DNA of 64,000 bases from Phenylobacterium sp. GTDB lineage: Bacteria; Pseudomonadota; Alphaproteobacteria; Caulobacterales; Caulobacteraceae. Location of the stretch: positions 816 through 64,815 of the forward strand of contig NZ_JBIIGK010000001.1 in NCBI RefSeq assembly GCF_044236515.1. The letters are read 5' to 3'. Made by a program: the position numbers. This document shows, one piece after another, positions 42,301 to 64,000 of the stretch. Each line of letters opens with the position of its first letter. Positions within the stretch are counted from its first letter, which is position 1.

Positions 42301-45300
42301 GATGCCGCTGCGCCTGGCCCGCGGGGCCGATCCGCGAGCAGGCTGGGGCCTCGTGGACGCCATTACCCCCCTGGCGCTCGATGTCCTCACGGTGCTGATC
42401 GACCGTCTGCAAGCGCGCAACGTCGAGGCGGTTCTGATCGGCGCGAGCGAAATCCTGAGCGCCAAGCGGCGTCACTACTGCGGCGGCGAGCTCCTGGCCG
42501 TGCAGGCGCAGGTCGGGCGCGAGATTCTCGCCCTCGGCCAACTGGAGCTCGGCGACAGCGGGCCGCCGGCCCTGCGGGTGACGGAACTGCCCGGCAGCGA
42601 GAGGTTCGTGGTCGCCCTGGATCCGGATCTGCGGGCCGCGTGGCGCGAGGCGGCCTCCCATCGCATCGACGGCCGGATCCTCGCCTTCGACAACCGCGCC
42701 AACCGCGGCGCCGACCTGCTGGCCAAGAAGATCGGCCTCTATTTCAGCGCCGCCGGCGCGTCCGTGCGGCCGGTCCGCCGGCCGGTGCGGTCCATCCTCC
42801 ACGCGATCGGCGGCGACGCCCAGCTGAAAGGCCGGGCCGGGCGGCTGGCCGACCGGTTCGAGGAAGCCCTGCTGCGGCTCAGCGAACGGCGGGTGTTCGC
42901 GATCCGGCGCTGCGGCGCCGACGCGCCGCCGCTGGAGGATCGCAACAAGGGATGGATCAAGGCCTGGCTGAAGACCGAGGTGGTCGTCGCGCCCTTGGGC
43001 CCGGGCGGCGACGGCGCGTCGGTCTCGAACGGCGCCGGGCAAGGCCTGTCGCGCCGCTGAGGCGCCGGCTGGAGGCTGGATAATGGGCAGCCCGCATGGC
43101 GTGACGGTCGTCAGCGGGCTGCAAGTTGGGGCTGGATGGGCGAGACTTTGCCGCCTCGGCTTATGTCAATCAGCGGGACGCGAGAATGATGGTCGGCTGG
43201 ACCTGCTCATAGAGCGCGGTGACCATCGGCCGATCGATTTTGACCACGGCCTTTCCGGTCATCTCACGCCGGCATCTCAGGATGAGATAGCTGCGGCCCA
43301 GGTCGCGCAAATCCCGCTCGCCGCAGAAGACGCGGGCGGCGCGGTCGACGCGGCTGAGAACGGTCGCCGCTCCCGCCATCGAGGATGTGTTGACGTCACT
43401 GATCTTGACGACCATGCGGTCGTCTTGCGCCTGAGCGGCGGACGCACCGAGCAGCAGGACGGATGCTACCGCGCTGAACACCATCTTGGGCATCGTGAAC
43501 CCCTTTTGGATGGATTGTTTTGCGGGCGCCGCCCCCGTCAAAGGCGACGCGTCTATATACGCCGATCAGGCTTCGGCGGCGTTCACGAACCGGTGTTATG
43601 TCGACCATCTGACATGTGCGCGGCCGGCGCCGCTTCGGCGGCGTACGCCTCGCGCAGCTCGCGCTTCAGCACCTTGCCGATGGCGCTGCGCGGCAGGGCC
43701 TCGACGAACCGCAGGTCGGACAGCCGCTGGTGCTTGCCGAGGCGGGCGTTGACCTCGGCGCGCAGGGCGTCGGCGGCGACCGCGGCCTCAGGGCGGAGGG
43801 CGACGAAGCCGACCGGCGTCTCGCCCCATGCGCGGGAGGGCACGCCGACGACGGCCGCCTCCAGCACGGCCGGATGGCGCGTCAGCTCGGCCTCCACGTC
43901 GCCCGGATAGATGTTGAAGCCGCCGGAGATGATCATGTCCTTCTTGCGGTCCATGAGCACCAGGAAGCCGTCGGCGTCGAACCGGCCGACGTCGCCGCTG
44001 CGCAGGTAGCGCAGGCCGTCGGGGCTGCGCCACTCGATCTCCGCGGTCTTGGCGGGCTGGTTGTGATAGCCCGTCATCATGGCGCCGGAGCGCCCGACCA
44101 CCTCGCCGACGCCGCCGGGCTCGACTTCCGCGCCGTCGTCGCCGATCAGCCGGACGTCGTGGCCGGGCAGCGGGCGGCCGACGGTGTGCAGCTTGTCCGG
44201 ATGGGCGTGGGCCTCGAGCGCACAGGTGCCGCCGCCCTCGGTCATGCCGTAGAACTCCACCAGCCCGCCGGGCCAGCGGTCCAGCACCCGGCGCTTCAGC
44301 TCCGCCGGGAACGGGGCCGAGGTGGCGAACTTCATGCGGTAGGCGGTCAGGTCGAAATCGTCGAACCGCGGGTGGTCCATCAGCCGCTGGTACTGCACGG
44401 GCACCAGCATGGCATGGGTGACGCGATGGGCCTGCGACAGCGCCAGGAATTGTTCGGCGTCGAACTTTGCCATCAGGACGACGCAGCCCCCGGCCGCGAT
44501 GGTCGGCAGAAGCGACACCAGGGTGGTGTTCGAATAGAGCGGCGTCGACAGCAGGGTCACCGCATCGTTCGGATAGACCGCCCGCCGCATGTGGGCCCAG
44601 CGCATGGCGTGCGGCTGGCGGATGCCCTTGGGGACGCCCGTCGTTCCTGACGAATAGATGATGTTGAAGGTGTCCTCCGGAGCGATGTCGCGCCGGACCG
44701 GTTCCTCGTCGGCCAACCAGTCATCGAACGGGACGCCGGCGTCGGAGCCGTCGAGGCTGACTCGGCGGGCCGCGACCGCGCCGAGGGCGGGGCCGAGGTG
44801 GTCGGCGACCTGACGATCCAGGAACAGGACCTTGGCCCCGCTGTCGGCGAGTTGGGCCAGCAGGCTGTCGGGGGTCGAAGACGGCGCGAGCGGGGCGACG
44901 ACGCCGGCGGCGCGCAGGGTCCCGAAGAACGCCTCGAGATATTCGACCCGCGAGGCGGCGCAGATCGCCGCGACCTCGCCGTGGCCGACGCCGTCACGCT
45001 GGAGGGCGGCGGCGACCCGATCCATGCGCCGGTCGAGCTCGGCGTACGATACCGTCCGCGCGGGATCGATCGCGGCCGGCCGCTCGCCCTGCGTCTGCGC
45101 CCGGACCCGGATCAGGTCGGGCAGCGTGCCGAAATCAAGCGCCAGCAACTCGGCAGGGGTCATCAAGGTCTCCGGGACACGTCAGCTCAAGCGGCCGCAA
45201 GGCATAGCGGCTGACGGGCCGCAAGTCAGGAACCGCTAGGCCGACTCGTCGGCCGCGCGACGTTTCAGGGCCGTCTTGTCGATCTTGCCGATCGGCAGGA

Positions 45301-63300: not shown

Positions 63301-64000
63301 CGCCTTGCCGGTCACCAGGTAGTTCATGGCCTGGTTGGCGAGGGTCGCGACCTGCACGTCGAGCAAGGCGACGTCGATGTGGCGCCCACGGCCGGTGACG
63401 CCGCGGCCGACCAGGGCGGCCATTACCGCATTGGTCGCGTAGAGCCCGGTCATGATGTCGGTCAGGGCGACCCCGGCCTTGTAGGGCTCGCTGCCCGGCT
63501 CGTCTTCCGCCGGGCCGGTGATGCTCATCAGCCCGCCCATGCCCTGGAGGATGAAATCGTAGCCGGGGCGGTCGGCATAGGGCCCCGTCTGGCCGAAGCC
63601 GGTGATTGAGCAGTAGACCAGCCGCGGATTAACCGCCGCCAGGCTCGCATAGTCGAGACCATACTTGTTCAGACCGCCGACCTTGAAGTTCTCGATCAGC
63701 ACATCGCTGCGAGCGGCCAGTTCGCGCACCAGGCGCTGGCCTTCAGGCTGCGTGAAGTCGATGGCGATGCCGCGCTTGCCGCGGTTGGCGCAAAGGTAAT
63801 AGGCCGACGCGTGCGCCGGCTCCGGGCCGTCGCCCTCGAAGAACGGCGGACCCCAGCCGCGGGTGTCGTCCCCCTCGCCCGGCCGCTCGACCTTGATCAC
63901 CTCGGCGCCGAAGTCGGCCAGCATCTGGCCGCACCAGGGCCCCGCCAGGACACGGCTAATATCCAGGACGCGGATCCCTTCCAGCGGCTTGCTCATCTCA

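Follow-up and report, generated by a model that had tools for sequence, protein, structure and literature searches.

A probable composite of a TetR regulon with a recurrent four-gene core and a separate uptake operon in a 20-kb catabolic locus of Phenylobacterium

Coenzyme A (CoA)-dependent catabolic operons that are repressed by TetR-family proteins include the atu operon for acyclic terpenes under AtuR, the phenylacetate operon under PaaR and those under Bacillus FadR (YsiA). The gene cluster of Sphingobium sp. Chol11 that acts on the side chain of conjugated bile salts contains a TonB receptor, an MFS transporter, amide-cleaving enzymes and a CoA ligase, which are co-induced (10.1101/2021.05.19.444901). 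The locus considered here occupies positions 43583 to 63996 of the window, which is a stretch of 64,000 nucleotides from a Phenylobacterium metagenome-assembled genome (MAG) of 3.16 Mb in 259 contigs with a completeness of 96.8% (GCF_044236515.1, contig NZ_JBIIGK010000001.1). A first-pass annotation had proposed that these 20 kb form one cluster for the uptake and CoA-dependent catabolism of an ester or amide substrate class. Gene calls made from the GC content at third codon positions (GC3), followed by Pfam and NCBIfam searches, confirm all 14 genes of that inventory with the families assigned to them. Comparative analysis suggests that the stretch is a lineage-specific composite of two units, the regulon of a TetR-family repressor and a separate uptake operon, a reading to which we give a probability of about 0.6. 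About two-thirds of the 14 genes appear to belong to the local regulon of this one TetR protein, which seems to be built on a core of four genes encoding TetR, a MaoC-type hydratase (MaoC), a GPH-type MFS transporter (MFS) and an acyl-CoA ligase (lig2).

The palindrome TGAG-N6-CTCA occurs exactly three times in the window, at 48300, 52303 and 56002 (sites 1, 2 and 3, respectively), and all three sites are intergenic and have A/T-rich flanks despite a GC content of about 70%. There are 16 exact sites in the 3.16-Mb genome, and three of them lie within 7.7 kb here against a Poisson expectation of 0.04, and so the operator provides a non-random link among the genes of this region. A palindromic matrix built from 45 sites in other genomes, none of them from this genome, was scanned against all 3.16 Mb. 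Sites 3 and 1 are the first and second highest matches in the genome (window positions 55996 and 48294, scores 30.3 and 30.2), and site 2 is the sixth (52297, score 19.6). The third match (C213:18702, score 27.9; core site C213:18708-18721) is directly upstream of a TonB receptor gene on another contig, the fifth (C256:17780, score 20.0) is also upstream of a TonB receptor gene, and the stretch downstream of the fourth (C247:3260-3285, 24.5 bits) has no convincing gene call. The core of site 1 is identical to that of the site upstream of the TetR gene of Sphingomonas lycopersici (L017). Four other Phenylobacterium genomes have such a TetR (G006 among them); in each of them the palindrome separates the TetR and MaoC orthologues, and it is also found there upstream of TonB receptors and hydrolases. 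The TetR_N domain of the window protein (PF00440, E = 1.2e-9, residues 44-82) is an invariant region across five orthologues, and the protein reaches no NCBIfam cut-off, the Bacillus FadR model scoring 30.8 bits against a cut-off of 200.

Since the top-ranked palindromes are located at their promoter regions, lig2, MFS, MaoC, the secreted serine hydrolase SxxK1, the pyrroloquinoline quinone (PQQ)-type dehydrogenase PQQ-DH and the carboxylate carrier MatC can be tied to TetR. The secreted bicupin (cupin) and the two other ligases, lig1 and lig3, seem to be tied to it less securely, and the membership of lig1, the last gene of the MFS-lig2-lig1 string, is uncertain. In keeping with the first-pass annotation, which had noticed a single TetR gene, one TetR thus appears to control much of the locus, as judged from the operator sites and the cross-genome matrix. 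Its control does not appear to cover all of it. No matrix match of at least 14 bits is present upstream of the TonB receptor of the window, and the matrix scan found no operator before the operon encoding this receptor, the secreted hydrolase SxxK2 and the Amidohydro_3 enzyme, before the family III CoA-transferase gene or before the adjoining acyl-CoA dehydrogenase (ACAD) gene. A search for inverted repeats that could point to a site for a second regulator before the receptor operon, the CoA-transferase/ACAD pair and the TetR gene found none. The operator-bearing receptor gene on contig C213 encodes a protein that is 46% identical to the operator-carrying receptor beside lig2 in locus L034, and is a probable unlinked receptor of the TetR regulon.

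TetR alignment gathered 34 loci with a TetR identity of 40-60% from Sphingomonas, Caulobacter, Phenylobacterium, Sphingobium, Niveispirillum, Hyphomonadaceae, Brevundimonas diminuta, Pacificimonas, Steroidobacteraceae and a Gemmatimonadales MAG. MaoC is encoded in 30 of these loci, MFS in 29 and lig2 in 28, and 27 loci have all three; the lig2 orthologues, which stand beside TetR, MaoC and MFS, are 48-63% identical. The loci contain 49 exact palindromes in 651 kb, 45 of which went into the matrix, whereas this 3.16-Mb genome has 16 in all; nearly all of the 49 have A/T flanks and the centre G/A-T-T/C-G/A-A-C/T. Of the 34 loci, 18 have an exact palindrome in the 260 nt that precede the TetR gene, and 23 have one if a single mismatch is allowed; the palindrome also precedes receptors and hydrolases of the TetR loci. 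Core loci with the same operator span two classes, Alpha- and Gammaproteobacteria, and the best TetR match (60%) is in Sphingomonas, outside the genus of the host, which fits horizontal spread. TetR, MaoC, the GPH-type MFS and lig2 appear to form a horizontally mobile core with a wide but patchy distribution over more than 30 other bacteria. A further copy, consisting of TetR, lig2, the operator, MaoC and an S15 hydrolase, is carried by the 1.16-Mb conjugative megaplasmid pTHN of Novosphingobium sp. THN1 (L186, 254370-275068), for which the sequence record is unannotated. This strain degrades microcystin, and a literature search for a link between the module and microcystin degradation found nothing specific.

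The genes around the core differ from locus to locus. One type of TonB receptor is present in 17 of the 34 loci, a secreted CocE/NonD (S15) hydrolase in 12, a crotonase after lig2 in 10, a carboxyltransferase in seven and an ACAD in six. Loci without the S15 enzyme have secreted beta-lactamase-fold hydrolases under the operator instead, and M55 and M19 peptidases are also seen. Some relatives add crotonase, ACAD, and biotin carboxylase with carboxyltransferase under the same operator, and propionyl-CoA-type carboxylases and a PrpB-like lyase are present in some. Neither the S15 hydrolase nor the common receptor type has an orthologue in this genome. Since PQQ-DH, MatC, lig3 and cupin are absent from all 34 TetR loci, they are likely to be local additions. 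The check proposed by the first-pass annotation, conservation in other genomes, thus speaks against one co-conserved 20-kb unit: TetR orthologues are present in 4 of 150 other Phenylobacterium genomes, relatives of cupin (E <= 1e-5) in none of 200 genomes of the family, and a close relative of the CoA-transferase in 1 of 60 genomes of the genus. A contig scan with cupin as the marker of related loci returned no relative. A DNA search with the whole cluster in 40 relatives returned scattered single-gene fragments and one 4-kb partial module in G006, and no plasmid matched the central 5.4 kb in a megablast search.

The features of the locus are collected in Table 1. Six of the encoded proteins (SxxK1, cupin, PQQ-DH, the Amidohydro_3 enzyme, SxxK2 and the receptor) have an N-terminal signal peptide ending in Ala-x-Ala. 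The longest open reading frames start too far upstream for SxxK1, SxxK2, cupin and MatC; the positions 48376, 60359 and 52534 are the true starts of the first three, and MatC probably starts at about 56130 with MGIEIW. Spacing, strand and the strong terminator between cupin and MaoC suggest six transcription units: MFS, lig2 and perhaps lig1 on the minus strand; SxxK1, followed after a 229-nt gap by TetR and lig3, on the plus strand; cupin on the plus strand; PQQ-DH and MaoC on the minus strand; MatC on the plus strand; and, on the minus strand, the receptor, SxxK2 and Amidohydro_3 genes, perhaps headed by the CoA-transferase gene. The overlap between MFS and lig2 amounts to 29 nt, the gap between TetR and lig3 to 13 nt and that between the receptor and SxxK2 genes to 17 nt. 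Site 2 was also flagged by the terminator scan, as a 5-bp stem followed by TTTT. A scan for the sigma-70 consensus found no promoter.

Table 1. Features of the locus, with positions in the window.
Feature	Position	Strand	Family or location
lig1, AMP-binding ligase	43583-45166	-	AMP-binding + AMP-binding_C (Pfam)
lig2, core acyl-CoA ligase, AMP-binding	45236-46804	-	Pfam
MFS, GPH-type (MFS_2) inner-membrane transporter	46776-48197	-	PF13347, 189 bits
Operator site 1, TGAGGTTGAGCTCA, A/T-rich flanks	48300-48313		divergent MFS/SxxK1 promoter region
SxxK1, secreted beta-lactamase-fold serine hydrolase	48376-49515	+	PF00144
TetR-family repressor	49745-50542	+	TetR_N, PF00440
lig3, AMP-binding acyl-CoA ligase	50556-52268	+	Pfam
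Site 2, TGAGGCGATCCTCA, weaker operator or terminator hairpin	52303-52316		between lig3 and cupin
Cupin, secreted bicupin, Cupin_3/EutQ-like	52534-53316	+	weak Cupin_2/Cupin_3 matches
Bidirectional intrinsic terminator	53325-53350		10-bp stem, 8 G-C pairs, A/T runs on either side
MaoC, (R)-specific enoyl-CoA hydratase type	53372-53857	-	PF01575
PQQ-DH, secreted eight-bladed PQQ-type propeller dehydrogenase	53918-55861	-	PF01011, 479 bits
Operator site 3, TGAGTCTGACCTCA, A/T-rich flanks	56002-56015		divergent PQQ-DH/MatC promoter region
MatC-type carboxylate carrier	~56130-57359	+	MatC_N, 169 bits, + CitMHS
Amidohydro_3 metal-dependent hydrolase, secreted	57356-59038	-	PF07969, 257 bits
SxxK2, secreted serine hydrolase, PIB-1/NylB group	59148-60359	-	PF00144
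TonB-dependent receptor	60377-62629	-	plug + barrel domains
Family III CoA-transferase	62773-63996	-	PF02515, 456 bits

The region to the left of the cluster contains a Tad pilus locus and a Rep-like gene. The GC content is 0.67-0.68 at 48001-54000 and 60001-64000 and 0.70-0.73 in the remaining window, and the lower values are consistent with an accessory, possibly acquired region. A tRNA-Gly(acc) called by ARAGORN within lig1 at 43962-44042 was taken as a probable false positive. The 3.16-Mb genome encodes 27 Amidohydro_3-type enzymes, 12 PQQ propellers, seven SxxK2-type hydrolases and about 12 ligases, and because such paralogues are abundant, family content by itself is weak evidence for grouping the genes.

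The nearest solved relative of MaoC is Rv0130 (E = 3.6e-26). Its hot-dog domain carries the catalytic Asp-x4-His dyad typical of the hydratase 2 motif (D39-x4-H44), which is invariant in all five aligned orthologues and has the spacing known from PhaJ. MFS scores 147 bits with TIGR00792, for which the cut-off is 231. Both lig2 and lig1 have the feruloyl-/fatty-acyl-CoA synthetase 8weu/8wev as their nearest solved relative (285 and 231 bits, respectively), and fatty-acyl-CoA ligase models score higher for lig2. Orthologues of lig1 with 65-69% identity are present in genomes of the genus in a different conserved context, and the slot after lig2 is occupied in relatives by the crotonase gene, not by lig1.

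SxxK1 contains the motifs S86-V-T-K, Y146-D-N and H-G-G, and its nearest solved relatives are the alkaline D-peptidase 4y7p and an S12 peptidase, suggesting that it resembles the D-peptidase or DD-carboxypeptidase-like type. The class C beta-lactamase model NF033085 scores 36.9 bits with SxxK1 and 40.9 bits with SxxK2, far from its cut-off of 415. A paralogue of SxxK1 (68%) adjoins a paralogue of PQQ-DH (50%) at the start of contig C256.

Among the putative local additions, lig3 has its best NCBIfam scores with crotonobetaine/carnitine-CoA ligase (296 bits, cut-off 651) and malonyl-CoA synthase (228 bits, cut-off 558), and its nearest solved relative is the malonyl-CoA synthetase 4fuq; its orthologues in G006 and G009 stand in unrelated contexts. 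The cupin has three paralogues with 31-35% identity in this genome (C225:2121-2864, C29:17012-17701 and C75:1286-1978), matches EutQ-like bicupins in atlas structures with TM values of 0.70-0.74 and has no obvious metal motif in its sequence. MatC is 67% identical to the MatC protein of a complete matA-matB-matC operon on contig C256. That operon, in which matA encodes malonyl-CoA decarboxylase, lies in the stretch C256:11768-20154 beside genes for an amidase-signature enzyme and the TonB receptor with the operator-like site of score 20.0, and the same contig also carries the carotenoid genes for lycopene cyclase, phytoene synthase and polyprenyl synthetase.

PQQ-DH matches PF01011 in full (positions 1-595 of 595), corresponding to a complete eight-bladed propeller, and the protein misses every NCBIfam cut-off. 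It has six paralogues with 44-50% identity, so that seven close secreted PQQ-type propellers (44-100% identical) are encoded in the genome, in the window and on C126, C256, C100, C182 (two) and C183. No match to pqqC (TIGR02111) was found in this 96.8%-complete MAG, and PqqE gave a match below the cut-off only. The gene was found in 1 of 40 genomes of the genus with at least 95% completeness, which confirms that the pqqC search works. PQQ-DH would consequently need scavenged PQQ, or may not act as a classical quinoprotein, and there is the possibility that this Phenylobacterium lineage uses scavenged PQQ or that its propellers are cofactor-less 'empty' quinoproteins. The alcohol oxidation step of the first-pass annotation is not supported, as it relies on a PQQ enzyme in a genome with no detected pqqC.

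The string at 57.4-64 kb and beyond, which consists of the CoA-transferase, receptor, SxxK2 and Amidohydro_3 genes and the divergent ACAD gene, is probably a separate neighbouring accessory operon, judging from the lack of an operator, the contexts of SxxK2 relatives and the rarity of the CoA-transferase in the genus. Its TonB receptor shares only 24-27% identity with the receptors that accompany the TetR modules. SxxK2 has the motif S140-I-A-K, and its solved relatives are 8rlj (E = 2.8e-75), which is PIB-1 (PA5542) (10.1101/2024.03.05.583521), and then 6-aminohexanoate-dimer hydrolase (E of about 1e-32). Relatives of SxxK2 compared in their context (seven loci of the genus and 19 metagenome loci, all with at most 49% identity) have no receptor or amidohydrolase gene alongside. 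The Amidohydro_3 enzyme has 3icj and 3igh as its only solved relatives, both uncharacterised. Genes for relatives of this enzyme (53-55%) stand beside other TonB receptor genes, as a tandem pair on C11 and singly in G019. The best NCBIfam score of the CoA-transferase is with succinate-glutarate CoA-transferase (526 bits, cut-off 750). No syntenic counterpart was found for the receptor-SxxK2-amidohydrolase operon with the CoA-transferase gene. The first-pass annotation had stated that no ACAD is in view, which holds within the window; the inspection beyond 64 kb that it had proposed revealed an ACAD gene with three Acyl-CoA_dh domains that starts 182 nt beyond base 64000 (L001:3683-4789), divergent from the CoA-transferase gene, and the contig ends inside this gene. 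The encoded ACAD scores 241 bits with the glutaryl-CoA dehydrogenase model Acd against 470, and other ACAD models score higher. MatC, the CoA-transferase and ACAD would fit together chemically for a dicarboxylate.

From these arrangements we infer repression, an order of steps, an effector and a substrate class as follows. The first unit, from about 45.2 to 57.4 kb and perhaps from 43.6 kb, would be the regulon of a TetR protein that binds TGAG-N6-CTCA, with operators at the divergent MFS/SxxK1 and PQQ-DH/MatC promoters and possibly before cupin. In other bacteria, the core is usually coupled to an operator-controlled TonB receptor and an interchangeable secreted hydrolase of the CocE/NonD S15 type or with a beta-lactamase fold. 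A conjugate too big for porins would enter via the TonB receptor, here most likely the C213 receptor, and its ester or amide bond would be cleaved in the periplasm, here by SxxK1. The freed carboxylic acid would then be imported by MFS and thioesterified by lig2, and MaoC would handle a 2-enoyl- or (R)-3-hydroxyacyl-CoA, which would proceed to beta-oxidation. The ligand that releases TetR would probably be the acid or its CoA ester. PQQ-DH, MatC, lig3 and cupin would be additions of this genome that have been brought under the same operator. The presence of an (R)-specific hydratase together with a crotonase in relatives suggests a 2-enoyl or (R)-3-hydroxy acid as the substrate, the peptidase-like hydrolases suggest amide or ester conjugates, and the propionyl-CoA-type carboxylases and PrpB-like lyase of some relatives hint at branched or odd-chain products. 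The general logic put forward by the first-pass annotation, that is, a receptor, a periplasmic hydrolase, import and CoA activation, is thus retained as the recurrent design of the TetR/MaoC/MFS/lig2 module, which adds hydration.

Several observations weigh against a TetR regulon set beside a separate uptake operon. The sequence comes from an uncultured organism whose MAG is split into 259 contigs. Site 2 may be the terminator of lig3 and not an operator, and there is no operator directly before the TetR gene here, so that autoregulation would need read-through from SxxK1 over the 229-nt gap. The Brevundimonas loci carry the core genes but not the exact palindrome, and MaoC is located behind PQQ-DH in the window and in front of MFS in relatives. 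SxxK2 has closer orthologues (60-81%) than those in the context comparison, which covers relatives with at most 49% identity. In addition, the operator-controlled MatC gene converges on the receptor operon and its product could serve it, and so the adjacency of the two units may be functional.

In a reading along the lines of the first-pass annotation, all 14 genes and ACAD would serve one pathway for one substrate class, in which the receptor of the window would capture the substrate, SxxK1, SxxK2 and the amidohydrolase would cleave it, PQQ-DH would oxidise an alcohol, MFS and MatC would import the acids, and the three ligases and the CoA-transferase would activate them. No unrelated gene interrupts the 20 kb, in which the genes lie close together, MatC abuts the 3' end of the receptor operon, a dicarboxylate carrier, a succinate-glutarate-type CoA-transferase and an ACAD are chemically compatible, and the entire region is accessory within the genus. 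However, the receptor operon and the CoA-transferase gene have no operator, the probable receptor of the regulon is encoded on another contig, and the same combination is found in none of about 150 other genomes of the genus or the 34 TetR loci. Adjacency is weak evidence here because this genome has so many paralogues in the receptor, amidohydrolase and SxxK2 families, and a single pathway is unlikely. Chance is less probable still: an accessory region could bring together abundant hydrolase, transporter and ligase paralogues, in line with the very high paralogue counts of this genome and the lack of conservation of the cluster as a whole, but the operator statistics, the recurrence of the four-gene core together with its operator in 27 of the 34 loci from two classes and the overlapping or nearly abutting junctions make such a neighbourhood very improbable.

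The core could also be the front end of a known route, namely Fcs/Ech for hydroxycinnamate esters, Atu/Liu for acyclic terpenes or branched acids, matABC for malonate, the gcdH-gcoT pair for glutarate or the route for conjugated bile salts. Among solved structures, both lig1 and lig2 are closest to a feruloyl-CoA synthetase, the Atu regulator AtuR is of the TetR type, and the crotonase, ACAD and biotin carboxylase with carboxyltransferase that some relatives place under the operator are Atu/Liu-like. MatC and the weak likeness of lig3 to malonyl-CoA synthetase point to malonate, and the CoA-transferase is nearest to the succinate-glutarate type. Yet no NCBIfam equivalog cut-off is reached by any of the cluster genes or by ACAD, and none of the candidates was adopted. 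For Fcs/Ech, to which lig2 does show a likeness, the window has no crotonase, and the 25 best solved relatives of the crotonase in related loci include generic hydratases only and no hydratase-lyase. For Atu/Liu, the TetR-controlled genes of the window include no carboxylase, ACAD or crotonase. For matABC, the MatC gene here has no adjoining decarboxylase or synthetase gene, as matA and matB lie in the complete operon on C256 with the second MatC gene. For glutarate, both the CoA-transferase and ACAD fall below the cut-offs given above. The bile-salt cluster of Chol11 is a different gene set with a Rieske oxygenase, ACAD and amidases (10.1101/2021.05.19.444901). No named pathway or literature record matching the cluster was found, in accordance with the first-pass annotation, and we consider a known route rather improbable, between a single pathway and a chance neighbourhood in this respect.

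The composite of a TetR regulon and a separate uptake operon also admits a broader, more speculative proposal, which we regard as doubtful at present. The TetR-MaoC-GPH/MFS-ligase core might be a mobile 'funnel', into which different lineages plug different receptors and hydrolases (S15, beta-lactamase-fold, M55 and M19) to obtain the same 2-enoyl or (R)-3-hydroxy acid from varied ester- or amide-linked conjugates, for example, depsipeptides, lipopeptides, hydroxyalkanoate oligomers or acylated alkaloids. In that case, the locus in Phenylobacterium would represent one variant, extended by a quinoprotein, a paralogue of the malonate carrier, a second ligase and a bicupin. Whatever the fate of this proposal, a locus that was previously a list of generic families now has a repressor, an operator sequence and a four-gene core as a testable handle. 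The core is carried by more than 30 species, including the cultured Brevundimonas diminuta ATCC 11568, Sphingomonas lycopersici, Caulobacter sp. CCUG 60055, Peristeroidobacter soli and Novosphingobium sp. THN1, and so its substrate can be sought via inducer screening in tractable hosts, not in an uncultured MAG. From an evolutionary point of view, the cytoplasmic core would be conserved and the receptors and hydrolases swapped between lineages. For annotation, the locus carries the caution that plausible parts in a compact cluster need not belong to one pathway.

The type of system is a familiar one, namely a TetR-repressed, TonB-receptor-linked, CoA-dependent catabolic locus. As in the known TetR-repressed CoA operons, the TetR gene stands beside genes for an acyl-CoA ligase and enoyl-CoA hydratases, a palindrome is located in divergent promoters, and ACAD, crotonase and a biotin-dependent carboxylase accompany the module in some relatives. 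Unlike in those operons, the module has a different operator sequence and includes a TonB receptor, a secreted hydrolase and a GPH-type MFS, and the window has no carboxylase. The Chol11 cluster shares the grouping of a TonB receptor, an MFS transporter, amide-cleaving enzymes and a CoA ligase with the window, but it differs in its Rieske monooxygenase, ACAD and amidase-signature enzymes and in the absence of the MaoC/GPH/lig2/TetR core, and no orthology was found between the two. The carrier of the window has MatC_N as in matABC, whereas it is a paralogue placed under the TetR operator with no adjoining decarboxylase, and lig3 scores below the malonyl-CoA synthase cut-off. SxxK2 resembles PIB-1 and NylB in its beta-lactamase fold and S-x-x-K motif and differs from them in being secreted and encoded in a receptor operon with an Amidohydro_3 enzyme. 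Within this familiar type, the conserved core of TetR, MaoC, MFS and lig2 and its operator appear to be previously undescribed.

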